From: Vulcanimicrobiota bacterium
Lineage (GTDB): Bacteria > Vulcanimicrobiota > Vulcanimicrobiia > Vulcanimicrobiales > Vulcanimicrobiaceae
Direction: 5' to 3'
Assembly (NCBI GenBank): GCA_963695225.1
Contig: OY968762.1
Coordinates: forward strand, 284,501 to 348,500
DNA: 64,000 bases
Shown here: in pieces, positions 4,567 through 64,000 of the stretch
Numbering within the stretch: position 1 is the stretch's first letter
Layout of the letters: the number at the start of each line of letters is the position of its first letter
Program-made: the position numbers and the translations under genes
Notes under the pieces: generated by a model
The model's database searches: none
Told to the model about the DNA's origin: nothing
The model's input: only the letters and a program-made list of their open reading frames with translations

Positions 4567-4580
4567 CGGCGGGCCGCTCG

Positions 4581-5960: not shown

Positions 5961-6005
5961 GCCGCGCAGAGGCCCCCGTCACCATTCATCCGTAGTACGT
6001 CATCG

Positions 6006-6746
6006 ATGGAAGAACAACGAACGCGCGAACCCGCACGCGCGTATATTCTCGGCGGCAACGGCAGCACGCTCGCGTTCGTGCACGATCTCGTCCCCGATCA
6101 GAAGCAGATCGCAGCGTGGCTCGTCCCGCTCGCGTGGACGCCGGTCGGCGTCGTCCTCGGCGAACCGTGGCAGCGCGTGGGAATCGCCGCCGACAACGTC
6201 GCCGGCTGGGCGGATCAAACGTTTTCCCCCGACGATCCGCGTTCGTTCGTGAGCCCCATGCGCGATCTGGAATTGTTGCAGCGCGTCGGTTGGCGCGTCG
6301 AGCGCCCGACCCGCTTGAGCGAATCCGTCGTGTTGAACCCCGAGGATCTGCCGGAAGACATCCTCGACGGCCTCGACCATCCGGCGGCGACGCTGACGCA
6401 ATGCGCGATCTGCCGCCGCACGTGCGTGCGCGATCACTTCGTGTGGAACGATCGCCAGCTCTGCGCGTGGGATTATCATTCGTCGGTCTTCGGCCGGCGC
6501 GGCCCGTGGCGCGGCGTTCCGTACGAGGAGCGTTTGTTCGAAACGTTGCCGCGCGCGCCGTACGTCGTCGGCGCGTTGCTCGACGAAATCTCCGTCGACG
6601 CGGTCCTCGCGATCTCCGGTTTCCCGGAAGAGGCGCAACGCGAAATCGTCAACCTCGCGATCGAACGCGGGGGCGAGGCATCGTATCTGGCGGTCCGTAC
6701 GGACGACGGCTACACGCTGCTGCGCGAGCGCTCGCCCGCGCGGTGA
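6006..6746 (+). CDS. hypothetical protein with Cys cluster
   Basis: 246-aa ORF with non-degenerate composition. CAICRRTCVRDHFVWNDRQLCAWDYH is a possible metal-binding cluster. The stop overlaps the GTG start of the PBP gene (GTGA). Confidence 0.5.
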   Translation: MEEQRTREPARAYILGGNGSTLAFVHDLVPDQKQIAAWLVPLAWTPVGVVLGEPWQRVGIAADNVAGWADQTFSPDDPRSFVSPMRDLELLQRVGWRVERPTRLSESVVLNPEDLPEDILDGLDHPAATLTQCAICRRTCVRDHFVWNDRQLCAWDYHSSVFGRRGPWRGVPYEERLFETLPRAPYVVGALLDEISVDAVLAISGFPEEAQREIVNLAIERGGEASYLAVRTDDGYTLLRERSPAR

Positions 6747-8170: not shown

Positions 8171-8201
8171 GCAGCCCTATCACCCTGAGCCCGCACCCCG
8201 C

Positions 8202-31800: not shown

Positions 31801-32483
31801 AGGCTGCGGTCAAGGACCGCCTCACGAAGGAAATCAACTACTGGGACTTTCGCGCGGAGCAGCTCAAGGAACAGGAGCGGGCCGGCAAAGCTAACGCAAG
31901 GCTGAACTCGGGTGAAGCGCGTAAGCGCGCGGACGACCTTCAGGCGCGACTCCAAAAGCGGCTCGAGGAGATCAAGCGAGAGCGCCAGCTAGCCCCGCTG
32001 CCGCCCGTCGTGCTCGGCGGGTTGCTGGTGGTGCCGATCGGACTGATCAGGGAAATCAGAGGGACTCCCCCAGTTACCTCGCAAGGCGCAGTTGATACGC
32101 AGGCTGCGGCTGCGAGGGCTCGCGAAATCGTTATGGAGATCGAGCGTGGGCTTGGCTTCGCGCCGGTCGACCGCGAATTTGAAAAGCTTGGCTACGACAT
32201 CGAAAGCGCCATCCCCGGGACTGGACGGCTTCGCTTCCTTGAAGTTAAAGGTCGCATAGCCGATGCCGACACGGTCACCGTAACTAAGAACGAAATTCTG
32301 TATTCGCTCAACAAGCCTGACGACTTCATCCTCGCCATGGTCGCTTTCGGCGCCGACGGGGCGCACGAGGTTCGTTACCTGCGCCGTCCGTTCCACGAAA
32401 AAGGCGTAACGACTGACTTTGCCGGGGCCACCGTCAATTTTCCCTTCGCGCAACTACTCGCTGAAGCGGCTCCACCGGCGTGA
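28887..32483 (+). CDS. SNF2-family helicase with C-terminal DUF3883-type (PD-(D/E)xK-like) domain
   Basis: AGGAGGA lies 5 nt upstream of the GTG start. DDPGAGKT (motif I) and VCDEAHKM (motif II), then helicase-C motifs ([25 protein letters not shown]). The C-terminus GYDIES...LRFLEVKG fits a D..ExK nuclease-like core. Confidence 0.85.
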
Positions 32484-32499
32484 GAAATGGTCTTCCCAT

Positions 32500-35400
32500 A
32501 TGATCGTAAAGACACGAAGAAAACTCATCGAAGTAGCCCTGCCGCTCGACGCAATCAACAAGGCTTGCGCGCGGGAGAAGTCGATCCGTCACGGGCATCC
32601 AAGCACACTGCATTTATGGTGGGCGAGGCGGCCGCTAGCGGCAGCGCGGGCAGTGATCTTCGCTCAAATGGTCGACGATCCGTCGGAATACGTAGATGTG
32701 CTCCGCGCGGACCCGAAGCTGCACCGTAAGGCGGAGACCGCGCTTAAAGCCCGACTGAAGCTTTGGGAGGAAGCCCTTTCCCTCGCCAAGAGGGCCGAGG
32801 GAACGGGGCTTTCGGTCCCGGAACCGGGGCCGGCACCGACCCTCGTCGATATGCTTGAAGATCTGGAGCGCCAGAGGCTCTTCCGAATAATCGAAGATCT
32901 CGTGGTCTGGGAAAACACGACTAACGAAATGGTTCTGCAGGCTGCTCGGGACGAGATCTGGGCAAGCTGGCGTCGCGCCTGCGCGGAGAATGTTGACAAC
33001 CCTCGCGCGAAGGAACTTTTTGATCGCAATGAGCTTCCGGCTTTCCATGACCCCTTCGCCGGTGGCGGTGCGCTGCCGCTCGAGGCGCAGCGGCTGGGGC
33101 TCGAGAGCTACGCCAGCGACCTGAACCCGGTAGCGGTGCTGATTAACAAAGCGATGATCGAGATCCCGCCGAGGTTCGCGGGGAAGCCGCCGGTGAATCC
33201 GGAGTCGCTCGGGGAGGAGTCTCTCATCTCCCGAGATTGGAAGGGCGCTCAGGGCCTCGCCGAGGACGTGCGCTATTACAGCCGGTGGATGCGCAACGAG
33301 GCTGAGAAGCGCATCGGCCACCTGTACCCTAAGGTCGAAGTCACCGCCGAGATGGCGAAGACGCGGCCGGACCTTAAGCCGTACCTTGGTCAAAAGCTCA
33401 CCGTGATAGCCTGGCTTTGGGCCCGCACGGTGAAGAGTCCGAACCCGGCATTCGCGCATGTGGACGTGCCGCTCGCCTCAACCTTTATGCTCTCAACCAA
33501 AGCGGGCAAGGAGGCGTATGTCGAGCCGGTGATTGAGAACGGCGGCTATGGTTTCACGGTAAAGGTTGGAAAGCCGAAGGATGTGGAGGCGGCGAAGATC
33601 GGCACGAAGCCGGGCAGCAGCGGGGGCAGCTTCCTCTGCTTGATGTCGGGGACGCCGATACCGTTTGAGTATCTTCGGTCGGAGGCCAAGGCTGGCCGCA
33701 TGGGCGCGAGGCTAATGGCTATCGTCGCAGAGGGCAACCGAGGCCGGGTCTATCTCGCGCCAACGGCGGAAGCAGAAGCGATCGCTTTGAGCGCGCACCC
33801 AACCGATGTGCCGGAGGCCGAATTGCCTCCGAAGGCGCTTGGTTTTCGTGTTCAGGAATACGGGATGACGCGCTGGCGCGACCTTTTCACTCTCCGCCAG
33901 CTTGCAGCATTGACGACTTTCGCTGACCTGGTGCAGGAGGCGCGCGAGCAGGTGCAGCGCGACGCAATTGCCGCCGGTCTTCCCGATGACGGCCGGCCAC
34001 TCCGCGATCGTGGCGCAGGCGCGACCGCCTACGTTGATGCAGTCGCGGTGTACCTTGCGTTCGCGCTCAGTAAAGTTACTGACCTTGCGAATACGATCGT
34101 AACGTGGCGTACTGACCGCGAATCATCATACCACCTGTTTTCGCGACAGGCGATCCCGATGAGTTGGGATTACTGCGAGCTTAACGCGCTCCTGAAGGGG
34201 ACTGGAAGTCTGATAGGTGCTGCTGATTGGACTGCCGAGAGCATCGAGGGCGTCGCTGCTGGTTATGGTTCACCTTTCGGTGATGCCCGCCAACATGATG
34301 CAACGCGGCAGGACACGTCGCGCGGCAAGGTGGTTTCCACAGACCCCCCTTACTACGACAACATCGGTTACGCAGATCTTTCCGACTTCTTTTATGTCTG
34401 GTTGCGGCGCTCGTTGCGACCGGTCTTTCCGGAGCTCTTCGCGACTCTCGCTGTTCCGAAAGCGGAAGAGCTGGTTGCTACGCCGTTTCGTCATGGCAGC
34501 AAGGAAAAGGCGGAGGCGTTCTTTCTCCACGGCATGACTCAGGCGATGCACCGCCTCGCCGAGCAGGCACATGCTGCGTTCCCGGTTACTATTTACTACG
34601 CTTTCAAGCAATCCGAAACCCAAACTGCGGAAGGCATCTCGAGCACGGGCTGGGAGACGTTCCTCGACGCAGTGATTAGCGCTGGATTCGCAATAACTGG
34701 CACGTGGCCGATGCGCACGGAACTTGGCAATCGCATGGTGGGCTCAGGCACAAACGCCCTCGCCTCCAGCATCGTGCTCGTCTGCCGCGCGCGCGCGGCG
34801 GACGCGCCCTCGGCGACGCGCCGCGAGTTTGTCGCCGCGCTCAGAGCCGAGCTGCCAGTAGCGCTCGCCCACTTGCAGCGCGGAAACATCGCGCCCGTGG
34901 ACCTCGCACAGGCGGCTATCGGCCCTGGCATGTCGGTTTACACCCGCTACATCAAGGTGCTCGACGCCGAAGGTAAGCCGCTTAGCGTGAGCGAGGCTTT
35001 GGCACTCATCAACCAGATTCTCGACGAGGCGCTGGCCGAACAGGAGGGCGACTTCGACGCCGATAGCCGCTGGGCGATCACTTGGTTCGAGCAGATGGGC
35101 TTTACAGAGGGCGAATACGGCGTGGCGGAACAGCTCTCAAAGTCCAAAAACACCAGCGTCGTCGGCATGGTCGAGGCTGGCATCCTCGAGTCGAAGCGCG
35201 GCAAGGTGCGACTACTTAAGCCCGACGAGCTGTCCTCCAACTTGAGCCCGGCCAAGGACTCACGCCTAAGCGCGTGGGCGATCGTCCACCACCTGGTCGG
35301 GGCGCTCGCGAGCCGAGGCGAGAGTGCAGCCGCGGGGCTCGTCGCCACGCTCGGAGCGAACGCCGAGATCGCCCGCGAGCTGGCCTACCGACTATATACC

Positions 35401-35544
35401 CTCTGCGAGCGCAAGAAACGGGCGGGGGAGGCGCTCGCCTACAACGGCCTCGTACAAAGCTGGCCGGAGATCGTTCGCATTGCGCGCGAGGGCGCAAAGC
35501 AACAGCCTGCGCAAGCCGGCTTATTTGAAGAAGCGGAGAGCTGA
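32500..35544 (+). CDS. DUF1156-type DNA methyltransferase (amino-MTase, DPPY)
   Basis: The N-terminal [19 protein letters not shown] is the DUF1156 signature. DPFAGGG is the AdoMet loop and [12 protein letters not shown] is catalytic motif IV. 16 nt downstream of the helicase gene. Confidence 0.85.
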
Positions 35545-35547
35545 TTC

Positions 35548-38500
35548 ATGGCCGTAACCAACCAAGAGCGCGTAGGCAAGGCGATGGAGCTGCTCCGAGC
35601 GGGGCTCGCACCTTTCGTCGAGCGCGAAGTGCAGTCTGCCATCAAGGCTGGAACCGTTCGCATGGACGCGGTGCGCCGTTTTGCTGAAGACCCGATCCTA
35701 AGCAACAAGCCGATCGAGCAATGGGACGTTGCTGGCCTACTGAAGCTAATGTGGGAAACCTGGAACGACGTATTCAGGCGCACGTTGGGCTTTGCCGAAC
35801 GCAGTTTGGTAAGCGAGTTGCGTGATGTTCGCAACAAATGGGCGCATCAGGAGCCGTTTTCCAGCGATGATACGGACCGCGCCCTCGACTCGATGAATCG
35901 CCTGCTGGCGGCCATCTCCGCGCCACAAGCCGACGAGGTCGGCAAGATGAAGATGGAATTGCGCCGCCTTGTTTTCGACGAGCAGGTACGGTCTGAAAAG
36001 CGCAGGGTCGGGGGCTCGCTGATCGAGCCGGCGTCGGCCGGCAACTTAAGACCGTGGCGCGAAGTCGTAACCCCGCACGCCGACGTTGCCAGTGGTGGAT
36101 ATCAGCAGGCCGAGTTCGCGGCCGACCTCTGGCAAGTACATCTCGGCGAGGGGAGCGACGAATACCGGAAACCAGCCGAGTTCTTCCGTCGTACCTTCTT
36201 GACGGAAAGCCTTGCGCGGCTGCTGGTCGGCGCAGTGCAGCGGCTTTCCGGCCGAGGCGGCGACCCCGTAGTGCAACTCCAAACGAACTTCGGCGGCGGC
36301 AAGACGCACTCAATGCTAGCGCTGTATCACCTCTTTGGCGGCGCTGCGCCGGGCGAAATGCCAGGCATCGACGCGGTGCTCGGCGAGGCGGGCGTAAAGG
36401 CCCTACCCAAAGCCAAGCGAGTCGTGCTTGTTGGCAACAAGATCTCTCCGGGCAATCCCGTCAAGAAACCCGACGGCACGATCGTGCGCACGCTCTGGGG
36501 GGAGCTTGCCTATCAACTGGGCGGCAAAGAGGCTTTCGCGCGAATAGCCAAGGACGACGAGAGCGCGACGAACCCAGGCGACCTGCTGCGCGAATTGTTT
36601 GTAGAGTATGGCCCTTGTCTCGTGCTGGTGGACGAATGGGTCGCCTATGCGCGCCAGCTTCACGATCAAAGTGACCTACCGGCTGGTGGATTCGAGACGC
36701 AGTTCACCTTCGCGCAGGCGCTGACTGAATCGGCGAAGCTTGCCAAGAACTGCCTTCTCGTTATCTCGTTGCCGGCGTCAGATACAACTGGGTCGCCCCA
36801 CACGCAAGCCGACGACGTGGAAGTCGGAGGCGTTCGGGGGCGCGAGGCGCTTGATCGCCTCCGAAACGTCGTGGGACGTGTCGAGGCGTCGTGGCGACCA
36901 GCTACCGCAGAAGAAGGTTTCGAAATCGTCCGGCGCCGCCTGTTCGAGTCGATGGCCGCCGAGATGTTCAAACAGCGCGATCTCACTGCGCGCGCCTTCG
37001 GCGATCTCTATCAAGCGCAGGCTGCGGAGTTTCCGCCGGAATGCCGCAGCGCGGACTACGAGAAACGAATTAAAGCTGCCTATCCCATCCATCCGGAGAT
37101 ATTCGACCGCCTCTACACGGATTGGTCGACGCTCGTAAAGTTTCAGCGCACCCGTGGCGTTCTGCGACTGATGGCCGCCGTGATCCACAGCCTGTGGGAG
37201 AAGGGCGACCGCAGCCCGCTGATTATGCCTTCGACGATTCCGATTGATGATCCACGCATACAGTTCGAGCTCACGAGGTATCTCTCTGATAACTGGGTGC
37301 CGATCATCGAAAAGGACGTTGACGGCCCCAACTCGTTGCCGCTGCGGATCGACGCCGAAGTGCCGAATCTTGGTAAGCTGTCAGCGACGCGACGCGTAGC
37401 GCGCACGATCTACCTCGGCTCCGCACCCACCGCAACCGCAGCCCATCGAGGCCTAGAAGACCGCCGGGTGAAGCTCGGCTGCGTTATGCCGGGAGAACCG
37501 CCGGCGGTTTTCGGTGATGCGTTGCGACGTCTTGCAGCTGCCGCCACTTATCTCTACCAGGATGGCCCACGGGTTTGGTACTCTACGCAGCCGACCGTCA
37601 CGAAGCTGGCGGAAGACCGCGCCGAGCAGTTGAAGCGCGATCCCGACAAAGTTGGCGCTGAGCTCGACCTGCGCGTTCGCAATGATCTGAAGCGAAGCGG
37701 CGACTTTTCACGCATCCACGCTCTTCCGCGATCTGGCGCCGACGTGCCTGACGATCTCGATGCGCGTCTCGTTGTGCTGCCGGCCGAGTTTCCGTACAGT
37801 AAAGATAGTGGGAACTCAGCCGAGTCGGCTGCGAAAGCAGTCCTCGAAGCACGTGGAAACACGCCGCGCCTCTATCAGAACACTCTTGTGTTCCTCGCCG
37901 CCGACAAGGTGCGACTTCAGGACCTCGACGAGGCCTTGCGCAGATTCCTGGCCTGGTCTTCCATCGTGGCCGAGACGGTTACGCTTAATCTCGACCCACA
38001 CCAAGCTCGCCAGGCGGAGGTGCAAAAGAAGACGGCGGATGACACGGTGAACGCACGGTTGCCGGAAACGTATCAGTGGCTCCTTGTGCCCGAGCAATCC
38101 ACACCGCAGTCTCCCGTCACGTGGCAGGCGTTGCGGCTAACGGGCGGCGATGCGCTCGCGGCTCGCGCCAGCAAGAAGGTTCGCAGCGACGAACTGCTGA
38201 TCTCAAGCCTCGGCTCCACAATCCTGCGCAAGCACCTGGATGACGTCCCATTGTGGCGTGGCGACTCCGTGGCAGTTAAGCAACTCGTGGACGATTTCGC
38301 TCGTTACCTGTACCTTCCGCGCCTTGCCGGGCCCGAGGTTCTCGCCCGTGCGATCGCTGATGGCGTTGCCCTTCTCACTTGGCGCACGGATACGTTCGGC
38401 TACGCGGAAAGCTATGTTGACGCAGCCGGGCGATATCGGGGGCTGCGAGGCGGCCTCGCCATGAACATTCTGCCCGACAACCCTGGGGTACTGGTCAAAC

Positions 38501-38871
38501 CGGACATCGCGGCCCGACAGCTGGACGCCGAGACTCCGCGACCCAGCATTTCACCGATAATACCGAAGCCCGAAGGGCCGGTGCCTGGAGGTGCAGCTGA
38601 AGGCGGTGTAGCGACAGAGATCTCCTCGGCCAAGCAGCTCAAGAGATTTCATGGCTCGGTGCAGGTCGATTCCACGCGAGTCGGGCGCGACGCTGGACGA
38701 ATCGCCGACGAGGTTATCGCGCATCTCGTGGGTCAAGTGGGCGCAGAGGTTAAGGTGAGCATCGAAATCGAGGCTTGGCTCCCAAACGGGGCGAGCGATC
38801 ACCTAGTGCGTACCGTTACTGAGAATAGCCGGACTCTTAAGTTTGACGCGCATGGGTTCGAAATTGAATGA
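35548..38871 (+). CDS. Swt1-like HEPN domain fused to DUF499-type P-loop ATPase
   Basis: The N-terminal ~120 aa contain LRDVRNKWAHQ (Rx4H HEPN motif). FGGGKTHS Walker A and LVLVDEW Walker B follow, with a long C-terminal region. Starts 3 nt after the MTase stop. Confidence 0.8.
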   Translation: MAVTNQERVGKAMELLRAGLAPFVEREVQSAIKAGTVRMDAVRRFAEDPILSNKPIEQWDVAGLLKLMWETWNDVFRRTLGFAERSLVSELRDVRNKWAHQEPFSSDDTDRALDSMNRLLAAISAPQADEVGKMKMELRRLVFDEQVRSEKRRVGGSLIEPASAGNLRPWREVVTPHADVASGGYQQAEFAADLWQVHLGEGSDEYRKPAEFFRRTFLTESLARLLVGAVQRLSGRGGDPVVQLQTNFGGGKTHSMLALYHLFGGAAPGEMPGIDAVLGEAGVKALPKAKRVVLVGNKISPGNPVKKPDGTIVRTLWGELAYQLGGKEAFARIAKDDESATNPGDLLRELFVEYGPCLVLVDEWVAYARQLHDQSDLPAGGFETQFTFAQALTESAKLAKNCLLVISLPASDTTGSPHTQADDVEVGGVRGREALDRLRNVVGRVEASWRPATAEEGFEIVRRRLFESMAAEMFKQRDLTARAFGDLYQAQAAEFPPECRSADYEKRIKAAYPIHPEIFDRLYTDWSTLVKFQRTRGVLRLMAAVIHSLWEKGDRSPLIMPSTIPIDDPRIQFELTRYLSDNWVPIIEKDVDGPNSLPLRIDAEVPNLGKLSATRRVARTIYLGSAPTATAAHRGLEDRRVKLGCVMPGEPPAVFGDALRRLAAAATYLYQDGPRVWYSTQPTVTKLAEDRAEQLKRDPDKVGAELDLRVRNDLKRSGDFSRIHALPRSGADVPDDLDARLVVLPAEFPYSKDSGNSAESAAKAVLEARGNTPRLYQNTLVFLAADKVRLQDLDEALRRFLAWSSIVAETVTLNLDPHQARQAEVQKKTADDTVNARLPETYQWLLVPEQSTPQSPVTWQALRLTGGDALAARASKKVRSDELLISSLGSTILRKHLDDVPLWRGDSVAVKQLVDDFARYLYLPRLAGPEVLARAIADGVALLTWRTDTFGYAESYVDAAGRYRGLRGGLAMNILPDNPGVLVKPDIAARQLDAETPRPSISPIIPKPEGPVPGGAAEGGVATEISSAKQLKRFHGSVQVDSTRVGRDAGRIADEVIAHLVGQVGAEVKVSIEIEAWLPNGASDHLVRTVTENSRTLKFDAHGFEIE

Positions 38872-49603: not shown

Positions 49604-51172
49604 ATGAACGTACTGGACGTGGCCGATCGAGACCGTATTCTGAACCTGCTGCGCAAGCGCTGGAGCATCCGGCACGTCGCGCGCGAAACCGGACACCGGC
49701 ACGAAACGATCCGCCGTTACGGGGTCGAGGCCGGCATCCTGGCGCCAAGGCCGGCAAAAGGTACCACCCCGGCCGAAGTGGCCGCCGACCCAAAACCGCA
49801 CACCGAGCCCGAAGTGCCCACCGGGTCGGCTCCAAAACCGCACACCGAGCCCGAAGTGCCCACCGGGTCGACGCGCAGCAGCGCCGAGCCGTTTCGGGAG
49901 TTCATCGAGGCAGAATTGCGCAAGGGCCGCAACGCCAAGGCGATCTTCCAAGACCTGGTCCTGCATCGCGGTCACACCGGCTCCTACGACGCGGTGAAGC
50001 GGCTGGCTCGCACGTTGCGAAAGCGCGAACCGAAGATCAGTTGCCGCTTCGAAACCGACCCTGGTCAAGAAGCCCAGGTCGATTACGGCGAAGGCGCGCC
50101 TGCGCGCGATCCGCGCACCGGCAAGTATCGCAAACCGCGCCTGTTTGTGATGACGCTTGGCAACAGCCGCCACGCGTTTCGCAAAGTCGTCTGGACCTCG
50201 TCGACGGAGATCTGGTGCCGGCTGCACGAGGAAGCATTCGCGTACTTCGGCGGCGCGACGCACACGATTCGCCTCGACAATCTCAAAGAGGGCGTTCTTA
50301 AGCCCGACGTTTGGGACCCGCAGCTCAATCCGCTCTACGCCAAGCTGCTCGAACATTACGGCGTTGTTCCGCTACCCTGTCGGCCGCACGCTCCCGATCT
50401 CAAGGGCAAAGTTGAATCGGCGGTCGGCTATACGCAAGGCACGGCCCTGAAGGGAAAGCGCTTTGAGAGCATCGAGGACGAGAACGCGCATCTGTTCCAG
50501 TGGAACGAGAACTGCGCGGCAACGCGAATCCACGGCACGACCAAGCGGCAAGTGCGGGCGATGTTCGAAGAGGAGCGGTCGCATCTCTTGCCGCTGCCGG
50601 CCAGGCGCTTTGAGTACTACCGCATCTGCGAGCGGACGGTGCACTTTGACGGCTACATCGAAGTCGACGCTGCCTACTACTCGGCGCCGCCGCGCTACGT
50701 TGGTAGCAAGGTGGTCGTGCACGTCGGCAGGCTGTGGCTGCGCATCGTTGATCGCACGACGCACGAATGCCTGCGCGAGCACACGATCGCGCTGCAGAAA
50801 GGCCAGCGCCGGACGCACGAGGCCGATCGCCCGCGGCAGACGCCGATCAGGGTCGAGAAACTGGCCGCTCGGATCGCCGGAGCGGGGCCCGGCTGCGCGG
50901 CCTTTGCGCAAAAGCTGATCGACACTCGCGGCGCGATCGCTCTGCGCGCGCTCTATGGGATGCTGGACCTGCTGCGCCGCTACGGAGCCGACGACGTCGA
51001 CCAGGCATGTGCGTTTGCGGCACGATCGGGGATCTCGAGCTTTCGGTTCGTTCGAACATATCTCCAGCACCACGCAACGCCGCTGAAACTCAAAGGTGAG
51101 CATCACATCATTCCGGAGATCGCGATCTACACAACGCACTTCGCCACCGTTACGCAAGGAGCAACCCCATGA
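49604..51172 (+). CDS. istA: IS21-family transposase IstA
   Basis: 522 aa with an N-terminal HTH and a DDE integrase core (QVDYGE..., typical IstA layout). Overlaps istB by 4 nt. Confidence 0.9.
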   Translation: MNVLDVADRDRILNLLRKRWSIRHVARETGHRHETIRRYGVEAGILAPRPAKGTTPAEVAADPKPHTEPEVPTGSAPKPHTEPEVPTGSTRSSAEPFREFIEAELRKGRNAKAIFQDLVLHRGHTGSYDAVKRLARTLRKREPKISCRFETDPGQEAQVDYGEGAPARDPRTGKYRKPRLFVMTLGNSRHAFRKVVWTSSTEIWCRLHEEAFAYFGGATHTIRLDNLKEGVLKPDVWDPQLNPLYAKLLEHYGVVPLPCRPHAPDLKGKVESAVGYTQGTALKGKRFESIEDENAHLFQWNENCAATRIHGTTKRQVRAMFEEERSHLLPLPARRFEYYRICERTVHFDGYIEVDAAYYSAPPRYVGSKVVVHVGRLWLRIVDRTTHECLREHTIALQKGQRRTHEADRPRQTPIRVEKLAARIAGAGPGCAAFAQKLIDTRGAIALRALYGMLDLLRRYGADDVDQACAFAARSGISSFRFVRTYLQHHATPLKLKGEHHIIPEIAIYTTHFATVTQGATP

Positions 51173-51933
51173 CCAACGACGAACTCGACCGCGCTCTGCG
51201 GCAACTGCGCATGAGCGGCATGGCCGACGCCGTTCCGATCCGAACGCAGCAGGCCCGTGCTGAGAACCTCGGCCCGCTCGATTTCATCAGCTTACTCGTG
51301 CACGATGAGCTGCAGCGGCGGCGGGATCGACTCATCGAGCGCCGCGTCAAGGCCGCCGGCTTTCGCGACCAGAGAACGCTCGACACGTTCGACTGGAAAT
51401 TCAACACGCTCGATCGCGCGCTCATCTTCGAACTGGCCAACGGGCGCTTTATCGAACAACACGAGGACGTTCTGTTACTCGGCAACGCCGGCGTTGGGAA
51501 AAGCCATATCGCGCAGGCGATCGGCATGGCCGCTATTCATGCTGGTTTCCGCGTATTGTACCGCGAGGCGCACGCGCTCTTCGAAGACTTCCTTCTCGCT
51601 GGCGCGACCGGCGAGCGCGGCACCGCGATCGCGACCTTTAGCGAGATACCCTTGCTCATCATCGACGACTTGGGGATGCGCAAACTCCCCGCCAACGCAG
51701 CCGAGGATTTGCTCGAAATCGTCATGCGACGCTACGAGCGAGCATCGACGATTCTGACCTCGAACCGACCGCTCGACGATTGGCCTAAGCTCTTCGGCGA
51801 CACGCCCGCCGTTGCGGCCTTTCTCGACCGGCTAATGCATCATTCGCATCTGATCGAGATTCGCGGCAAGAGTTATCGGCTCCACGAGCACAGCATCGCG
51901 GCCCGCCACCGGAAGGCAAAGGCGAGCGCGTAG
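51169..51933 (+). CDS. istB: IS21-family helper ATPase IstB
   Basis: GNAGVGKSH Walker A and LLIIDDLG Walker B; DnaC-like AAA+. Confidence 0.9.
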   Translation: MTNDELDRALRQLRMSGMADAVPIRTQQARAENLGPLDFISLLVHDELQRRRDRLIERRVKAAGFRDQRTLDTFDWKFNTLDRALIFELANGRFIEQHEDVLLLGNAGVGKSHIAQAIGMAAIHAGFRVLYREAHALFEDFLLAGATGERGTAIATFSEIPLLIIDDLGMRKLPANAAEDLLEIVMRRYERASTILTSNRPLDDWPKLFGDTPAVAAFLDRLMHHSHLIEIRGKSYRLHEHSIAARHRKAKASA

Positions 51934-53070: not shown

Positions 53071-55575
53071 CTATCCCTGCAGTTGCTGTCTTTTTGCGTC
53101 TAAGAACTCAAGCGTACTTTCAAACTCCAACCACTGCGCTGCATGTTCCAGCTCGCGAATCCCATGCCTACCGCAAATATACTTCGTACACGCAACTAGA
53201 TGCGCATAGACCCCCATGTTCTCCGCTTCAGCCTGCATTTGCGACAGTAAGCAATCCAAGAGGCGCTCCTCGCCACGCCTCCAGTGAACTAGGGCTACAG
53301 CCTGTAATGCGAAGAGCCGGCCAGCTCTATATCCAGCCCTATCCTGGACTTGCAACGCTCGGGCCGCTGTAGCAAGAGCATCGGAAATACGGTCCAGCAT
53401 CAACTCGGAAATCGCCATGGCCGCCAATGCTTTGCCTGCCTCAATAGGTGCGCCTACAGCTTCATTAGCTTGAACAGCAGATAGCGCCAAATCAAGTGCT
53501 TCCTGCGGCGCACGCCAACAGAGTGTTTCGACTCTATTGGTAAGCGCCTTCGCGATCATCGCCTCACAACTCGCAGCCTCCGCCGTATCAAGAGCGCTGC
53601 CATAGCATCCTAAGGCCGCCTCGTGAAGATGATTAAAGCGCCGATTATGACCTTTGAAGCGCCAGCACTCCGCAACCCAAATAGAGTCATCGCGCCGTTC
53701 TCGCAGTGCTTCATCGAAGATAGCATCCGCCTCCCGAAACCTGCCGCGGATCATCTCGATGTCGCCTAGCTGCCTGCGCGCTGCACAACGATTGCTAGCC
53801 CCAAGTGCGCCGTTGGCGGCGATATTCGCGATGTCCACATAGACCGCAGCTGCAGCGCCGTAATTCCCGAGAAGATGCGCGGTATGAGCGCTAAGGTATC
53901 TGTAAAGCGGCCGCCAATCCTGTAGACGATCTTCAAATTCGGCGAGCCTCGCGTAAGACCGCGACGCTTCCTCGAGCCGGCCCTCCTTGCGAAAGCAGTA
54001 TGCTTGTAACAATAGCAGTCGCAAATCGATTTTTGAGGGGCCGACGGCGACCGAACCGCTGAACCTGCCCGCCAGATAGCTTTCAAGGACGCCGGCGACC
54101 CATATCCATCGGCCCGCCTCGATGCCGTCGAGAAGCGTTTCGACCACTGGTTCCCAGCGCGCCCTTTGATCGTCTGCGGCATGGAGTGGAAATCGCCGTA
54201 GAAGGCTCATGTAGGCCTCGGTAAGCCACATTTGTCTCTGAGCGTCGTTACCATGTTCCCGGGATTCCATCAGCTGCTCTTGGAGCGAGCGAACGACGCC
54301 GGCTAGAATAACAGACATCGGCCTAGCTGCCAGATGCATGGCAAACGTACTCTGCATTGCGTACAAGCCGAGTTGTGCGTCAACGACATCGCTATATGAT
54401 ATCGCACAGAATTCATCAAAAAGAGATAACGGCACAGGAAGATTCAAATTACGAACAATTGCCGCGAACAGCTCGCTGTCGAACTTGACTACGAGCGCTA
54501 TTGCGCGAGCAGCGTGACGCATTCCTTGGTCCAGATGACTCAAGAAACGGTCGATCACATCGCCCTGATGCAGAGCAAAGTCCGCGGCCTTGACCGCGCT
54601 TCCATTAGCCTTCTCGATCAAATAAGTTGAGGCACATAAGTCAAGATAGAGCGGTACCCCGGCAGATACGCTAATGATGGCATCTCGAATGTCCGGTTCG
54701 AGCACTGGAATGCCCGTGAGGTACTGTTCCGCATCGGCGCGTGCCAAGGCGCCCAACAGGTGCTGCTCGAGTACTTCGTCCCATTCCGGGTTCCATTCGC
54801 TCCAGCGGATAAATTCACGTGAGCCGATTACGAATAGGGAGCGTTCGGATGCCCCAATGAGCTCTTGTACCCAGGCATCGAGCCGTTGCTTCGTGCTGTT
54901 GAATTGTTGCCTCTTGTGAAGGGCCTCAAATGAGTCTAGAAAGAGAACGGCGTGCGCATCGGTTAGGAGCAAACCGCGTGCGATGTCATCGGCAAGATAA
55001 AACGGAACCTTCATTACTAGATCCTCTTCAGAGAGCAAGTCTATGGTCTCAAACTCTTCTCTTAGCGAGGTGAGATGTTGTCGGACAAACGCATTTGCGC
55101 GCCCAGCAAGTTTGCGGAATAGTTTGAAGACGGGAATCACGCCTACGGCCTCAGCAGCAACGTCGATGGCGTCTAAGAGAAGGCTGTTCTCGCCGAGAAG
55201 TGACTTGTTCAGGTTTCGAAGCTCCTCTCCAGATAGCTGAAGCGCGCGCGCAACAGCGTACTCGAAGCGGTAGCACGGAATGCCTAACTGACGGCGAATC
55301 TCCAGAAGTAGGTCGATAGGGCTCCTGAGGAGCGGATTCTCGCAGTCCACGGACGCAAGACGGACGCCATGACGAGGGATGTTCTCTTTTAGCTCGTGTA
55401 TTAGCGCTGACTTGCCGATGCCACCAGCGCCGTAAAACGTTAGCACTCTAAGGGAAGCCGTGCCATGTGTTATGGAAGCGAACAGGCGATTGAATGCTGC
55501 TTGCGCAGTCTCTCTGTCGGTAAACCGTTTGGTTGCCGGGTCCTTTAGAAGGCCTTTATACTTGCTTAACGTCAT
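53071..55575 (-). CDS. STAND NTPase (NB-ARC-like) with C-terminal TPR-like repeats
   Basis: FYGAGGIGKSAL Walker A ~40 aa from the N-terminus, VLFLDSFE Walker B, and SAGVPLYLDL (equivalent to the NB-ARC GxP/GLPL motif). A ~400-aa helical-repeat C-terminus follows. There is no N-terminal effector domain. Confidence 0.75.
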   Translation of the reverse strand: MTLSKYKGLLKDPATKRFTDRETAQAAFNRLFASITHGTASLRVLTFYGAGGIGKSALIHELKENIPRHGVRLASVDCENPLLRSPIDLLLEIRRQLGIPCYRFEYAVARALQLSGEELRNLNKSLLGENSLLLDAIDVAAEAVGVIPVFKLFRKLAGRANAFVRQHLTSLREEFETIDLLSEEDLVMKVPFYLADDIARGLLLTDAHAVLFLDSFEALHKRQQFNSTKQRLDAWVQELIGASERSLFVIGSREFIRWSEWNPEWDEVLEQHLLGALARADAEQYLTGIPVLEPDIRDAIISVSAGVPLYLDLCASTYLIEKANGSAVKAADFALHQGDVIDRFLSHLDQGMRHAARAIALVVKFDSELFAAIVRNLNLPVPLSLFDEFCAISYSDVVDAQLGLYAMQSTFAMHLAARPMSVILAGVVRSLQEQLMESREHGNDAQRQMWLTEAYMSLLRRFPLHAADDQRARWEPVVETLLDGIEAGRWIWVAGVLESYLAGRFSGSVAVGPSKIDLRLLLLQAYCFRKEGRLEEASRSYARLAEFEDRLQDWRPLYRYLSAHTAHLLGNYGAAAAVYVDIANIAANGALGASNRCAARRQLGDIEMIRGRFREADAIFDEALRERRDDSIWVAECWRFKGHNRRFNHLHEAALGCYGSALDTAEAASCEAMIAKALTNRVETLCWRAPQEALDLALSAVQANEAVGAPIEAGKALAAMAISELMLDRISDALATAARALQVQDRAGYRAGRLFALQAVALVHWRRGEERLLDCLLSQMQAEAENMGVYAHLVACTKYICGRHGIRELEHAAQWLEFESTLEFLDAKRQQLQG

Positions 55576-56558
55576 CGCGATGGCCGATCGTTCACTTTAG
55601 CGCATTGGGTGGCTGAGGCGTCTAGCAGTAGTCGGTGTCGAGGAATAGCCGAGTCGAGATTGGTGGCTTTGGATGAGTAATGTGAATGCAAGTCGCTGAA
55701 CAGTCCGCGGTATCGGGTTACTGCGGGAGGAAGGCCAGCGTTAAGCGGATGTTTCTCTGTTAAGCCGTCGCGCCACGTAAGAGTGATAGATTCCTGAGAA
55801 TGATCTAAGGTGACGTCGCAGTGTTCGTAGTAAAGCGTCGTTGTCTTAGAATTGACATTTAGGGTCCAACTCGTGTCGATGTGAACGATAAACCCTTCTG
55901 AAGGAGTCTTTCCGCTCAGAAGAGCGTTACCCGCGATTTGCGTACATGGTAATTCGCGCAGGCTGATCATCGTTGATGAGAGCATTACGAGAGTCGCATC
56001 GGCAAGAATCTCGTCAAGGACGGTTAATGCATTAATTCCGCTATCTAGCCAAGATCCACTCAGACTCTTCCCTGCGGCGAGGGCGTCACCGTTCGCGATA
56101 TACGGATCGTAGAAGCGACAACTCACTGCTTTCAGAGAACCCAGGGTTGACTTCAGGTGCCTGCAGATCTGCTTCCATCGGAGGATTTCGACGCCAAAGG
56201 CGAAGTGAAACATCGCATAGATCGTGGCCGATTCATGAGCGGAGAGGCGCTCGAGTTCGGCAAGGTCGGCCGCATTAGAGACGAGCGGCTTCTCAACCGC
56301 TGTGCGGCGGCCGGCAGAAAGTGCCGTCTTAAGATGCTGGAAGTGCGTGTCCGTTGGCGATGAGATGACGATCACATCGGCCGGTGAAGAGTCGATCAAA
56401 TGCTGAGCTGTACGATGCCTCGTGATAGACTGCGGGAGGGCTTGCATTCGGGCGACTTCTGGGTCGTAAGCATCGGTGATTTGGATCTGGGGCAAGAGTG
56501 ATAGTGCACGCAGATAATACTCCGTAACCTTGCCTACGCCAAGCAACGCAATATTCAT
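55572..56558 (-). CDS. Gfo/Idh/MocA-family NAD(P)-dependent oxidoreductase
   Basis: N-terminal Rossmann loop MNIALLGVGKV and the family-typical EKPL motif, in 328 aa. The stop overlaps the STAND start by 4 nt. Confidence 0.7.
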   Translation of the reverse strand: MNIALLGVGKVTEYYLRALSLLPQIQITDAYDPEVARMQALPQSITRHRTAQHLIDSSPADVIVISSPTDTHFQHLKTALSAGRRTAVEKPLVSNAADLAELERLSAHESATIYAMFHFAFGVEILRWKQICRHLKSTLGSLKAVSCRFYDPYIANGDALAAGKSLSGSWLDSGINALTVLDEILADATLVMLSSTMISLRELPCTQIAGNALLSGKTPSEGFIVHIDTSWTLNVNSKTTTLYYEHCDVTLDHSQESITLTWRDGLTEKHPLNAGLPPAVTRYRGLFSDLHSHYSSKATNLDSAIPRHRLLLDASATQCAKVNDRPSR

Positions 56559-58045: not shown

Positions 58046-58426
58046 CTAGACCGATCGCGTGCAGCAGGGCGCGCCTAAGTTCATCGAGTGCCTCGTGGAG
58101 AGGCTGACGGTCGGAATGTACTTGCCGCGCACTCGCACGCGGTCGAGGCGCTCGAAACGGACATGTGCTAGCAGGTCCGCTTTCGCCCAAGTGTCGACGG
58201 GGCCGAAACAAGCATAGCTACCCGGCGGAAAATGAACGTGGATTGGCTTGATCGGCCTGGGCGGCGCCGTACTGACAGGGACTACCAACGCTATCGGTGC
58301 CCCGGCATTTCGCGGTGAAACGACGACAACACGCCGCAGCTTTACCATTTCCGGCGCGACATAACCCGCGAAGTCGCACATCCAGACTTCACCGGGCGAT
58401 GGGATAATATTCGGTGGGAGCGACAT
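58046..58426 (-). CDS. PemK/MazF-like toxin-fold protein (no adjacent antitoxin recognised)
   Basis: PSPGEVWMCDF....PEMVKLRRVVVVSP matches the N-terminal SH3-like strand pattern of PemK/MazF-family proteins. Confidence 0.55.
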   Translation of the reverse strand: MSLPPNIIPSPGEVWMCDFAGYVAPEMVKLRRVVVVSPRNAGAPIALVVPVSTAPPRPIKPIHVHFPPGSYACFGPVDTWAKADLLAHVRFERLDRVRVRGKYIPTVSLSTRHSMNLGAPCCTRSV

Positions 58427-58560
58427 CGATTTCTACTACGTTTCGTGCGAGGACCGCATCGCGCTTCCGCTAGGGCAGTATCTCATTGTTGAGGGTATTG
58501 CGACGAAGGAGGAACTGAACAAGTGCGAGATCGCGATTGAGCGGTGGCGCCTGCTTCGCG

Positions 58561-58791
58561 TCAGAGAAGGGCCCGCAATTCGTCGACGGTTAGGCCGGCG
58601 TCGTCTAGAATGGCGGCGGGCGTGCCGCGCTTGATCGTATCGCCACGGTGAACGTGGACCGTCGTGCGCCGGCCGTTTTCCGGATTCTCCGTGAAGTGTG
58701 CACTACCGCGAATGCGAATGACGACGAACCCTGCACGCTGGAGTGCGCGGACTAGCCTGCCGCCTTCGACGACTGGGAGCTTTTCGCTCAT
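58561..58791 (-). CDS. hicA: HicA-family mRNA interferase toxin
   Basis: 76 aa. LVRALQRAGFVVIRIRGSAHFTENPENGRRTTVHVH is the classic HicA dsRBD-like pattern with a catalytic His. Confidence 0.8.
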   Translation of the reverse strand: MSEKLPVVEGGRLVRALQRAGFVVIRIRGSAHFTENPENGRRTTVHVHRGDTIKRGTPAAILDDAGLTVDELRALL

Positions 58792-58798
58792 AGCGCAG

Positions 58799-59038
58799 CT
58801 ACGCCGCGGGGGCGGGAAGTGTGACTGCCACGGCAGTCACGATATCTGACGGCGGAAGCGGCTCGCCGCGCTCGGTCATCACCTCAGCGTGAAGTTCGAT
58901 CACCTCGCGAGCATTTGCGAGGCATTCCTCGACCGTCTCCCCTTGCGTATGTGCGCCCCGGAACGCGGGGATGTGGACCGAAAACCCACCTTCGGCCTCG
59001 GGCTCCAGCACGACTGCGTACGACCGTTCCAACGCCAT
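58799..59038 (-). CDS. hicB: HicB-family antitoxin
   Basis: YAVVLEPEAEGGFSVHIPAFRGAHTQGETVEECLANAREVIELH is a typical HicB/UPF0150 N-terminal domain. It lies 7 nt upstream of hicA. Confidence 0.8.
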   Translation of the reverse strand: MALERSYAVVLEPEAEGGFSVHIPAFRGAHTQGETVEECLANAREVIELHAEVMTERGEPLPPSDIVTAVAVTLPAPAA

Positions 59039-62037: not shown

Positions 62038-62214
62038 GATGGGTGACGGTCCGGAGCGCAAGCGGGGTGGAGCGCGCTCGTGTTTCAACAAGAACGGATC
62101 GCCGAAGGCGGCCTTTGCGACGAAGAAGCTCGCCGAGCGCGCCATTCCGCGGACGAGCGTCAGGCTCGCGGCATACGCCTGCGCGCAGCATGGGTGGCAC
62201 CTCGGCCACCGCTA
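62038..62214 (+). CDS. small basic protein (58 aa), not in ORF track
   Basis: My translation: MGDGPERKRGGARSCFNKNGSPKAAFATKKLAERAIPRTSVRLAAYACAQHGWHLGHR*. It resembles small conserved C...Y-x-C-x3-GWHLG proteins. It falls below the 60-aa track cutoff. Confidence 0.35.
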
Positions 62215-62357
62215 GGCGTCGGCAGAGATCCAGGCCCGCGCCTGCGCGGCCCGCGCGTATGGCTGCACGATCGGGAGCCCCTGCACTGGTTCATTTCGTC
62301 GCCGAAACGTGCTAGATTCTCTTCGGATGCACTCTCTCTGAAAGGGTCGGCGTGGCG

Positions 62358-62516
62358 ATGCAACTCCTAGAAGAAGGCCGGGCGGTCGAAGTTGTGGCCG
62401 AGGACGAAGAAGACGCCCAGAAATCGTGCACGTGCGGCTGTGCCTGCGGCAACGGCGGCGATGCAGTGCACGCCAACAATTTCGATCAAACTTCGGCGGT
62501 CACGGCGGTAACCTAG
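62358..62516 (+). CDS. candidate RiPP precursor peptide (52 aa, acidic leader, CxCxCxC core)
   Basis: My translation: MQLLEEGRAVEVVAEDEEDAQKSCTCGCACGNGGDAVHANNFDQTSAVTAVT*. It ends 7 nt before the radical SAM gene start. It falls below the track cutoff; the track instead shows an antisense ORF at 62367..62591. Confidence 0.55.
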   Translation: MQLLEEGRAVEVVAEDEEDAQKSCTCGCACGNGGDAVHANNFDQTSAVTAVT

Positions 62517-62523
62517 AGACTCC

Positions 62524-64000
62524 GTGAACCCCAGCGGCGGCGGTGCGCGTTCGCGGGCGGCGGACGCCGGGCCGTTCGTCAAGGTTTTCAAAACCGGCTC
62601 GCATCGTTACGTCTACGATGTGAGCCGTAATGCCCTGTTTCAAACGCGGGCCGCGACCGCAGCCGTCATCGAGGCCCTCGGCCAGGGCGTGAGCCCCGCC
62701 GAAGTCCACGCCCGGCTGCGGCCGCGCTATTCCCGCGACCAAGTCGCCCGCTCGCTGCGCGACGTGCGCCGCTGGAAGCGCAAGGGATACCTCTCCGGCC
62801 GCAGGCCTTTGGGCTTGCGCCTCGGTCTAACGCCGAGCGACCTTCAAGCGCAGATGGCGAGCGGCTTGCGTCAGCTGATCCTCGGCGTGACGGAGACGTG
62901 CAACCTGCGCTGCCGCTATTGCGTCTACAGCGGATCGTATCGGCACTTTCGGCAGCATCACGCAGCGAGCATGACGTTCGAGATCGCGAAGAAGGCGCTC
63001 GATTTCTTCTACGACCACGTCGCGCCGGGCGAACCGAACAGGATCTCTTTCTACGGCGGCGAGCCGCTCGTCAATCTCGCGCTGATCCGAGAATGCGTTG
63101 CGTATTACGACGAAAAGGCGCAAGGCCGCCGGATCGTCTACAACCTGACGACGAACGCGACGCTTTTGAAGGCCGAAGCGCGCCGCTTCCTCGCCGAGCA
63201 CAACGTCGCCGTGCGCGTGAGCCTGGATGGGCCCGAGGAGATCCACGACACGAATCGCGTCTATCGCAACGGACGCGGCTCGTACGGCGCCGTCCGCGAG
63301 CATCTCGAGGCGCTCGCGCGCGAGTACCCGGCCTACTTTCGCGAGCGCGTCTCGTTCTGCTCGGTCGCCGGGGCGCCGTACAAACTCGCTCCCGTCCTCG
63401 AGTTCTTCGAGGGCGATCCGCTGTTCGCGGGGCTCACCGTCTCCGTGAACGGCGTGCGCCCGGTCGACACGTCGTATCTGGAGGAACACCCGCCCTCGTT
63501 CGACGGCGCGGAAATCGGGGCGCTCCGCCGCAGATACATCGCGAAGACGGTGAAGGGCGAGGATCCCGGGACGTACCTGCGCTCGCTCTTCGAATCGCGC
63601 TTGGCGGACATCGTGCAAAGGGGGGCGGGGAAGCCGATTCCCGAGTACCTCCATCCGAACAAGATCTGCATCCCCGGCGTTCGGCGGCTCTTCGTCGACA
63701 GCAGCGGGCGCTTCCAGGCCTGCGAGCGCTTCAACGAGACACTCTTCATCGGCGACGTGGAGCGCGGCTTCGACGCGACGAAGGTTGCGGGCCTCATCGA
63801 CGACTACATCCGCATCAGCGAGGCCGACTGCCGCACGTGCTGGGCGGTCCGCCTCTGCCGAACGTGCTTCATCTCCGCGAACGGCGACGGCATCGACGGC
63901 GAGCACAAACGCAAGCACTGCGCGAACGAGCGCCGCGAGCTGGAAGCCGCGCTCAGCCTCTACTGCACGCTGATGGAGCGGAACCCCGACTGCCTCGACC
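62524..64000 (+). CDS. radical SAM/SPASM-domain peptide maturase (3' end outside window)
   Basis: Open frame from GTG 62524, with an in-frame TAA at 62509, to the window end. An N-terminal PqqD/RRE-like segment (HRYVYDVSRNALFQTRAATAAVIEAL...) is followed by CNLRCRYC (CxxxCxxC) and C-terminal Cys clusters (ICIPG...QACERF...CRTCWAVRLCRTCF). It is absent from the track because it has no stop. Confidence 0.8.
   Translation, partial: MNPSGGGARSRAADAGPFVKVFKTGSHRYVYDVSRNALFQTRAATAAVIEALGQGVSPAEVHARLRPRYSRDQVARSLRDVRRWKRKGYLSGRRPLGLRLGLTPSDLQAQMASGLRQLILGVTETCNLRCRYCVYSGSYRHFRQHHAASMTFEIAKKALDFFYDHVAPGEPNRISFYGGEPLVNLALIRECVAYYDEKAQGRRIVYNLTTNATLLKAEARRFLAEHNVAVRVSLDGPEEIHDTNRVYRNGRGSYGAVREHLEALAREYPAYFRERVSFCSVAGAPYKLAPVLEFFEGDPLFAGLTVSVNGVRPVDTSYLEEHPPSFDGAEIGALRRRYIAKTVKGEDPGTYLRSLFESRLADIVQRGAGKPIPEYLHPNKICIPGVRRLFVDSSGRFQACERFNETLFIGDVERGFDATKVAGLIDDYIRISEADCRTCWAVRLCRTCFISANGDGIDGEHKRKHCANERRELEAALSLYCTLMERNPDCLD

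Follow-up and report, generated by a model that had tools for sequence, protein, structure and literature searches.

At the 3′ end of a 64,000-nucleotide stretch of DNA from a Vulcanimicrobiota bacterium (contig OY968762.1, positions 284,501–348,500; the whole stretch is hereafter the window), a short gene for a Cys-rich peptide stands directly in front of a gene for a radical S-adenosylmethionine (SAM)/SPASM maturase. We consider it probable that the two form a minimal cassette for a ribosomally synthesized peptide with post-translational modifications (RiPP), in which the enzyme ties the peptide into a nested thioether hairpin, most likely through sactionine links. Judged by its family matches, the cassette is a distant two-gene branch of the CcpM-type Cys-rich-peptide systems, located outside the Firmicutes, and not a new kind of system. 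A sequence-only reading of the same DNA had proposed a RiPP precursor next to a thioether-type maturase with a RiPP recognition element (RRE), and the conservation of the peptide gene and the family matches of the enzyme now support that proposal.

Conservation of the peptide gene

The peptide open reading frame (ORF) runs from an ATG at 62358 to a TAG at 62514–62516 and encodes the 52-aa product MQLLEEGRAVEVVAEDEEDAQKSCTCGCACGNGGDAVHANNFDQTSAVTAVT. Its stop lies 7 nt before the GTG at 62524 that starts the maturase, which agrees with the 52-codon frame and the spacing given in the sequence-only reading. A start at the alternative in-frame GTG (62352) would lengthen the peptide by two residues, and this codon has the better-placed Shine-Dalgarno-like string (AAAGGG), 5 nt upstream; the ATG is the start chosen where the genes of a public contig with this DNA were called independently. 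The peptide would comprise a leader of ~23 residues, a CxCxCxC donor block (the Cys ladder), and a tail of 22 residues free of Cys. In the six-frame translation of the window the string (Cx)≥2C occurs twice and CxCxCxC once, the latter in the precursor itself. No consensus promoter or terminator was found in a scan 5′ of the gene, a negative of little weight in a host of 64% GC whose promoter types may differ from the consensus, and an Rfam scan of the window returned no match.

Querying 5.8 billion proteins with the peptide returned the peptide alone, a result that reflects the limits of word indexing and small-ORF calling. In place of a protein search, DNA carrying homologous maturases was taken from genomes, metagenomes, and individual contigs and scanned for small ORFs. 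The sequence-only reading had staked the peptide on its conservation upstream of such maturases, and a co-directional Cys-ladder ORF was present 5′ of the maturase in 8/8 of the nearest homologues with readable upstream DNA (38–48% enzyme identity), ending 0–143 nt before it (Table 1). Among the ten nearest loci, the precursor was the only conserved neighbour in an all-against-all BLAST of stop-free stretches of at least 40 aa. Across 158 related loci, CxCxCxC was found in 22/529 small ORFs just 5′ of the maturase and in 20/10,638 elsewhere, a 22-fold enrichment, and a (Cx)≥2C ORF lay up to 900 nt up- or downstream of the maturase in 58/165 loci.

The closest relative of the peptide, from locus L002, is 39% identical to it over 67 residues (BLASTP E 1.7e-9 within the neighbourhood set), and the GC content of the L002 DNA is much lower than that of the window. 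Both peptides carry CGCACG and ANNFDQ with the same spacing, the ANNFDQ block being equally far from the last Cys in each; its counterpart in L170 is ANMFNTD. The precursor alignment shows no variation at C26 and C30 and a conservation of at least 90% at C28, and it contains a common N-terminal theme, M-K-K-x-x-E-G. The distance from the start to the first Cys has a median of 21 residues in 38 related precursors. On this comparative evidence the small ORF is a real gene.

Architecture of the maturase

The complete maturase, read from the public contig, is a protein of 500 aa (P0001). The CxxxCxxC site and the SPASM-type Cys clusters noted in the sequence-only reading are both present, at C126/C130/C133 and as seven Cys in the C-terminal domain. 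Read by eye and compared with RumMC2, the latter follow the seven-Cys SPASM pattern Cx9–15Gx4C ... Cx2Cx5Cx2–3C ... C, with the spacing C382-x12-G395-x4-C400, then C436-x2-C439-x5-C445-x2-C448, and finally C466. These seven Cys would be enough to ligate two auxiliary [4Fe-4S] clusters. In an alignment of 29 homologues the three radical SAM Cys are invariant and the SPASM Cys invariant or nearly so. Pfam Radical_SAM matches the protein (E 2e-13), and the Pfam SPASM model PF13186 gave no match to it.

An AlphaFold2 model built from the 29-sequence alignment has a mean predicted local distance difference test (pLDDT) of 92.1 and a predicted TM score (pTM) of 0.89. Ahead of the barrel it places strands at residues 19–23, 28–32, and 37–41 and helices at residues 43–53, 58–65, and 71–86. 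The N-terminal PqqD/RRE-like segment that had been proposed from the letters alone is thereby recovered as a predicted PqqD-like winged-helix RRE at residues 19–86. A Foldseek search of the PDB with this model ranked CteB first (E 5e-21, 495 aligned columns), followed by ChlB, anSME, TigE, SkfB, and SuiB; CteB was also the top match in a PDB sequence search (E 1e-24).

Kinship of the maturase with CcpM

Among the NCBIfam models, TIGR04068 (CcpM) fits the maturase best, at 331.5 bits over profile positions 1–460 of 462 (curated cutoff 500). The RumMC model (NF035951) is second with 253 bits (cutoff 720), followed by the lachnocin maturase model (219 bits, cutoff 550), QhpD (TIGR03906; 200 bits, cutoff 453), PapB (NF047865; 173 bits, cutoff 340), the SCIFF maturase (TIGR03974; 126 bits, cutoff 425), and anSME (TIGR03942; 89 bits, cutoff 349). 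On TIGR04068 the nearest relatives of the window enzyme score 284–358 bits, proteins named as CcpM 561–680 bits, and a Clostridium locus 500.1 bits. The nearest homologue in the 5.8 billion proteins is 48% identical and the next are 41–43% identical. A neighbour-joining tree of 116 homologues, which carries no support values and is indicative only, groups the window protein with P0003–P0009 and leaves the named CcpMs outside the 86-member clade that surrounds it.

Precord et al. (PMC10288494) proposed six function-determining positions, which are F112, F152, T186, S210, H363, and Q364 in CteB. Through the CteB alignment these correspond to V134, Y177, T209, S233, E401, and R402 of the window enzyme, a profile of VYTSER. 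The same profile is found in the bona fide CcpMs P0079 and P0082, a third (P0119) has IYTSER, with one conservative change, and VYTSER is the commonest profile among the 116 homologues. Because its catalytic-site residues are those of bona fide CcpMs, the window enzyme is predicted, by the best available criterion and despite the missed equivalog threshold, to carry out the same reaction. The CcpM assignment offered as a candidate in the sequence-only reading therefore stands as to best family match and active-site profile, but falls short on score. Since the enzyme is under the CcpM cutoff and the peptide under both precursor-model cutoffs, we regard the cassette as a distant relative of CcpM systems and not as a member.

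Several other families were tried and rejected. The sequence-only reading had named grouping with anaerobic sulfatase maturases, together with a sulfatase neighbour, as one way in which it could fail; the anSME assignment is ruled out by score, and no sulfatase lies among the genes in the 8 kb upstream or in the loci of the relatives. The SCIFF and CXXX-repeat maturase families that it had also listed were searched with their models, and both were rejected on score. For SCIFF the precursor pattern differs as well, as it does for PapB, which likewise fails on score. QhpD is ruled out by score, and the upstream DNA holds no amine dehydrogenase genes. Score and context together also exclude HxsB, the CXXX-repeat maturase (TIGR04115), and the families that form cyclophanes.

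Scaling of the tail with the number of Cys

In 37 non-redundant upstream precursors, which are not phylogenetically independent of one another, the more Cys the block contains, the longer is the stretch after the last of them (slope 4.4 ± 0.4 residues per Cys, intercept 4.7, r 0.88). Median tails for peptides with three to ten Cys are 17, 21.5, 28, 29, 32, 38.5, 46.5, and 51 residues, respectively. The rank correlation of tail length with Cys number (0.87) was reached in 0/5000 permutations. Because the tail holds no Cys, the scaling is not an effect of composition. Such scaling would follow if every Cys had to have a separate acceptor in the tail, with acceptors about four residues apart.

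Comparison with known systems

In the sequence-only reading the CxCxCxC core found no place in a described family. That needs correcting, as CxC runs typify TIGR04065 precursors and CxCxC is the donor motif of StsA (PMC10288494). TIGR04065, the 'CLI_3235 family bacteriocin precursor', is the catalogued partner of CcpM, and Firmicute loci in our set encode precursors of the form MKKLGKK...AY(A)CxCxC... that score 34–44 bits on this model (cutoff 26); by this comparison CxC runs are a hallmark of CLI_3235/TIGR04065 precursors. The window cassette has the RRE–radical SAM–SPASM architecture of CcpM systems and a co-directional precursor directly upstream with a leader of ~20 residues and a CxC block. 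Both precursor groups follow a plan that begins in the manner of M-K-K-x-x-E/K-G/K and ends in a tail without Cys, in which S, T, N, G, A, D, and Q are abundant. In contrast to the canonical systems, the window peptide does not have the MKKLGKK...AY leader, its host is not a Firmicute, and TIGR04066 and TIGR04069 proteins and an ABC exporter were not found upstream in the window or beside the nearest relatives. A canonical CLI_3235/CcpM cluster of Paenibacillus polymyxa, SacP23, has been expressed and yields an active, heat-stable antibacterial bacteriocin; this cluster also has a subtilase (PMC10731318).

The maturases RumMC1/2 of the type II sactipeptide ruminococcin C belong to the second-best matching family. 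RumMC2 has its Cys at C126/130/133, at C394, C413, and C462, and at C450, C453, C459, and C481, with an RRE at residues 16–94 (PMC8188230); the window enzyme shares its domain order, the radical SAM Cys numbers 126/130/133, and the Cx2Cx5Cx2C SPASM spacing (C450/453/459/462 in RumMC2). The RumC leader has 19 residues, and the rings C24–E31 and C22–N35 of RumC2 are nested, with donors two and acceptors four residues apart; in the C-terminal hairpin of RumC the inner ring forms first, and RumMC2 yielded ~1 mM 5′-deoxyadenosine (5′-dA) per ~0.5 mM doubly bridged product (PMC8188230). The acceptor spacing of four in RumC2 resembles the ~4.4 tail residues per Cys found here. However, ruminococcin C carries two separate Cys pairs in a double hairpin whereas the window peptide has one four-Cys block, RumC clusters carry export and immunity genes, and the window enzyme scores far under the RumMC cutoff.

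StsA of Streptomyces sparsogenes has CxCxC donors in a nested sactionine hairpin (C2–G15, C4–G13, and C6–G11; PMC10288494). As in StsA, CxCxC opens the core of the window peptide and a Gly-containing stretch comes next, but StsA acceptors are two residues apart in GxGxG, and beyond GNGG nothing of that kind is present in the tail of the window peptide. The peptide also falls below the StsA model NF045558 (CxCxCx4GxGxG; 14.1 versus 42 bits), and its maturase is CcpM-like with a fused RRE, whereas StsB is MftC-like and works with a separate RRE protein, StsC. In type I sactipeptides Cys are N-terminal and acceptors C-terminal, and the window core has the same layout of an N-terminal Cys block and a C-terminal predicted acceptor tail. 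CteB, the ranthipeptide enzyme of a SCIFF system (PDB 5WGG/5WHY), is the closest solved structure to the window enzyme, and the clade of the window resembles SCIFF systems in consisting of a bare peptide and maturase without a dedicated protease or exporter. Instead of a CxCxCxC block, SCIFF precursors carry six Cys arranged in a C-terminal pattern.

Proposed mechanism and alternatives

We propose that the N-terminal RRE would bind the leader, and that the radical SAM cluster would cleave SAM to a 5′-deoxyadenosyl radical that takes a hydrogen from one of the residues of the tail. A Cys sulfur, placed by the SPASM auxiliary clusters, could then capture the carbon radical site in the tail, at the cost of one SAM per link. 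Four such rounds, probably from the innermost Cys (C30) outward, would give four nested thioether rings in a single ladder-like hairpin, with a mass change of −8 Da and no free thiols. Thioether synthesis is expected because the enzyme is kin to RumMC, CteB, QhpD, and PapB, and links to α-carbons (sactionines) are by analogy the most likely. A RumC-type register, for which the rule 4n+3 needs 19 tail residues (the window peptide, with four Cys, has 22), could join C30–V37, C28–N41, C26–T45, and C24–T49, with acceptors about four residues apart along the tail, a spacing like that in the N-terminal RumC hairpin. An StsA-type register would instead use D35, V37, A39, and N41.

Several observations weigh against this reading. 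The enzyme is under the CcpM cutoff (331 versus 500 bits) and 30–33% identical to true CcpMs. On TIGR04065 the window peptide has no match at E ≤1 and its closest relatives none at E ≤10, and the only precursor-model match of the peptide, to the StsA model, is at E 0.034. A profile–profile comparison of window-type with canonical CLI_3235 precursors aligned nine leader columns with 59% probability, and common ancestry of the two groups is not demonstrated by it. The VYTSER profile matches neither the ranthisynthase CteB (FFTSHQ) nor the sactisynthase StsB (YTISKL), as given in the text of Precord et al., so the profile does not settle whether the α-carbon or a side chain is attacked. No structure of a CcpM-family product was found in the searchable literature, which is why the thioether chemistry is argued by analogy. 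Neither the upstream DNA nor the loci of the closest relatives hold a protease, exporter, or immunity gene, the tails of L164 and L074 are 1–5 residues shorter than the RumC-type rule 4n+3, and the precursors behind the tail scaling lack phylogenetic independence. Finally, GC content at third codon positions (GC3) is 0.67 in the peptide ORF and 0.87 in the enzyme gene, and an alternative frame scores as well as that of the peptide; codon bias does not support or exclude coding in an ORF this short.

The attacked carbon is where the serious alternative departs from the sactionine hairpin. The same cassette might make a ranthipeptide, with Cys joined to the β- or γ-carbons of Asp, Asn, Thr, and Gln side chains as by CteB, PapB, and QhpD, an outcome that we rate as possible but improbable. 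CteB is the only close solved structure, and the QhpD and PapB models give 200 and 173 bits (on PapB, 215 bits for one true CcpM). D, N, T, and Q abound in the tail, and ANNFDQ is the block conserved between it and its nearest relative. Yet for the window enzyme and all of its relatives the sactisynthase model RumMC outscores QhpD, PapB, and SCIFF, and the active-site profile is unlike that of CteB at four of the six positions. The substrates differ too: PapB-type peptides have CX3D repeats and interleaved small rings, in contrast to the contiguous Cys block and long Cys-free tail seen here.

The peptide may also be a substrate for chemistry of another kind, such as epimerization, a C–C or C–O cross-link in the tail, conversion of Cys to formylglycine, or formation of a metal-binding CxC peptide resembling metallothioneins or chalkophores. 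SPASM enzymes of this superfamily are polyfunctional, the MftC-like StsB had been mis-predicted from full-length similarity, no determined CcpM reaction was found in the searchable literature, and CxC runs are good metal ligands. We nonetheless find such chemistry quite unlikely, given that the Cys block itself is conserved across phyla, that the nearest characterized families are all thioether synthases, and that the anSME score is 89 bits against a cutoff of 349. Tail length that tracks Cys number is, moreover, hard to explain without a pairwise reaction between Cys and tail residues. The remaining alternative, a chance frame in GC-rich DNA with the true substrate of the enzyme encoded elsewhere, could appeal to the 70 ORFs of at least 30 aa in 6 kb, to the unremarkable GC3, and to the protein search that returned the peptide alone. 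It is, however, effectively refuted by the Cys-ladder ORF that recurs in the same position and orientation in 8/8 of the nearest readable homologues, in DNA of very different composition, and the enrichment of CxCxCxC 5′ of these enzymes and its uniqueness in the six frames of the window make it more remote still.

Returning to the nested hairpin, a wider proposal can be made, although we advance it tentatively and with more doubt than confidence. The cassette and its relatives might form a distinct topological class in which contiguous CxC donors (four here, up to ten elsewhere) are stapled rung by rung to acceptors at about every fourth residue of a tail of ~4n+3 to 4n+7 residues, a rule that could be read off the sequence. 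In the clade of the window, where the bare pair has no protease or exporter and is scattered over uncultivated phyla, the product might have an intracellular role, like that suspected of SCIFF peptides, and not that of a secreted bacteriocin.

Genomic context and other features

Table 1 Features of the cassette (window positions) and of related loci (positions within each locus).
Feature	Position	Strand	Sequence or basis
Precursor peptide gene, 52 codons and stop	62358–62516	+	Also annotated as a gene on the public contig carrying this DNA
Non-coding spacer with possible ribosome-binding string AAAGGG and alternative GTG 62352; presumed promoter region	62216–62357	+	Sequence
Putative leader M1–S23, acidic	62358–62426	+	MQLLEEGRAVEVVAEDEEDAQKS; boundary from first Cys position, not a known cleavage site
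Cys ladder C24-T-C26-G-C28-A-C30, predicted thioether donors	62427–62447	+	Sequence and alignment conservation
Cys-free 22-residue tail, predicted acceptor region	62448–62513	+	GNGGDAVHANNFDQTSAVTAVT; ANNFDQ block common to closest relative
Radical SAM/SPASM peptide maturase, codons 1–492 of 500, GTG start; continues 27 nt past the window	62524–64000	+	
Predicted RRE, winged helix, three strands and three helices, residues ~17–90	62572–62793	+	AlphaFold2
CxxxCxxC (C126, C130, C133), ligands of SAM-binding [4Fe-4S]	62899–62922	+	Sequence
SPASM domain, seven Cys (C382, C400, C436, C439, C445, C448, C466)	63667–63921	+	Sequence
L002 precursor			KVCNCQCGCACGTGDETTRANNFDQSW; maturase 48% identical to window enzyme
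L170 precursor			AAVCDCQCTCACALGYGEANMFNTDW
L003 precursor			KACSCTCVCPSTGAKAGQTETIHE
L166 precursor			KSCSCTCFCPSTGTKEGQTETIHE
L164 precursor			AKCKCSCTCYCPPAYKADNTAS
L169 precursor, cut by contig end			...SCTCYCSDTDVVKSNN
L171 precursor			STCSCVNECTCICYPWNRNV
L167 precursor			ACQCKCGCSCASCSCKQGACPCDD
L078 tandem precursors	5251–5526, 5559–5780, 5980–6285		
L095 tandem precursors	3010–3279, 3633–3899		
L150 tandem precursors	3435–3572, 3748–3885		
Second-type precursors in L029, L030, L047, L048, L061, L105, L108, L109, L120, L130, L143, L145, L160			

Upstream of the cassette lie, in order, MazF, HicAB, a MarR regulator and, divergent from it, a FUSC_2/YccS-like membrane protein, then a HAD hydrolase and an unassigned 58-aa ORF. 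None of these genes recurs in related loci, and for that reason MarR, FUSC_2, and the HAD hydrolase, weighed as possible parts of the cluster, were dismissed. TIGR04066, TIGR04069, ABC exporter, and subtilase genes were sought in the 8 kb upstream and beside the nearest relatives, and none was found. Downstream of the maturase, the DNA covered extends 91 nt past its stop and several frames are open there. Because no other neighbour recurs, the conserved unit in the clade of the window is the peptide–enzyme pair. In the canonical locus L037, CcpM is followed by a TIGR04066 protein (246 bits), an acyl carrier protein (ACP)-related TIGR04069-like protein, and an ABC exporter. Among distant relatives (31–36% identity), an ABC exporter lies downstream in L005, L007, L009, L015, L087, and L088, and others in this identity range have NHL/DUF5128 beta-propeller proteins.

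Some related loci hold tandem precursor paralogues, two or three per locus (Table 1). In one case, a Planctomycetia metagenome-assembled genome (MAG), the peptides contain CGCSCQCSC and CSCGCQCSC; in another, a metagenome contig, they have 9 and 10 Cys. A second precursor type lies 20–130 nt downstream of related maturases, mostly in gut Firmicutes, and has the form MKFVNP(I/L)GR...ACxC...(~20 residues)...HCGCGC.... Its two separated CxC blocks recall the two-hairpin layout of ruminococcin C, and the type may belong with the lachnocin or RumC-like families. At L002 the maturase (5033–6407) was called as a protein of 422 aa and a separate 54-aa ORF (6243–6407). By tblastn, residues 9–499 of the window enzyme span the same stretch of the L002 contig (L084), a pattern that points to a frameshift or sequencing error close to this metagenome contig's 3′ end.

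The 58-aa ORF MGDGPERKRGGARSCFNKNGSPKAAFATKKLAERAIPRTSVRLAAYACAQHGWHLGHR (62039–62215, +) lies between the HAD hydrolase and the precursor and is called as a gene on the public contig. It has no Pfam or NCBIfam match and is not conserved beside related maturases; its C...YxCxxHGxWH ending resembles a small zinc-binding motif. Toxin–antitoxin genes, a PemK/MazF toxin (58046–58426) and a HicA/HicB pair (58561–58791 and 58799–59038), occupy the region 58046–59038 (−), about 3.5 kb upstream of the cassette. The stretch 53071–56558 (−), with a GC content of 0.51–0.56 against 0.64 for the window, encodes a TPR-repeat STAND/AAA NTPase of 834 aa and a GFO_IDH_MocA oxidoreductase and was probably acquired horizontally. 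At 49604–51933 (+) a 254-aa ORF comes after a Mu-like transposase (rve integrase core and Mu transposase C-terminal domain), suggesting a mobile element beside the low-GC stretch.

Farther upstream, 28887–38871 (+) is likely a defence island, with a 1198-aa SNF2/ResIII helicase carrying NOV_C, a 1041-aa ORF, and a 1107-aa protein in which an N-terminal Swt1-like HEPN domain is fused to DUF499. The region 14999–17242 (+) encodes a 747-aa protein with a trypsin-like peptidase domain and twelve Sel1 repeats. Within 688–10307 (+), a penicillin-binding protein (PBP) transpeptidase ORF (6116–8170) precedes a Ser/Thr kinase with five PASTA repeats (8202–10307), a layout known from Actinobacteria. The true PBP start lies later than the ORF start at 6116, because its homologues have ~475 aa. 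The nearest named homologues of the PBP are from Vulcanimicrobiaceae and Candidatus Eremiobacterota MAGs (62–65% identity), and metagenome proteins reach 80–93%. As a pointer from a single gene, this makes kinship of the host with Eremiobacterota probable.

Implications

The two-gene layout itself will not surprise a RiPP specialist, and its interest lies in the family to which it leads. The CcpM-type family is large and widespread, with members in gut Firmicutes, Planctomycetota, Chloroflexota, Desulfobacterota, and the genome of the window, and the curated family models currently miss both genes of the cassette. One CcpM cluster yields a bacteriocin active against methicillin-resistant Staphylococcus aureus (MRSA). 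The family has been annotated for years, though no bond made by a CcpM-type enzyme is reported in the searchable literature. The window version is the simplest test system, with one short peptide, one enzyme, and no accessory genes to reconstitute. The value of ~4.4 tail residues per Cys is a falsifiable prediction of ring number and of approximate acceptor positions throughout the family. If the proposal is true, these peptides would offer a sequence-programmable multi-ring thioether scaffold for RiPP engineering, and the curated models would be extended.

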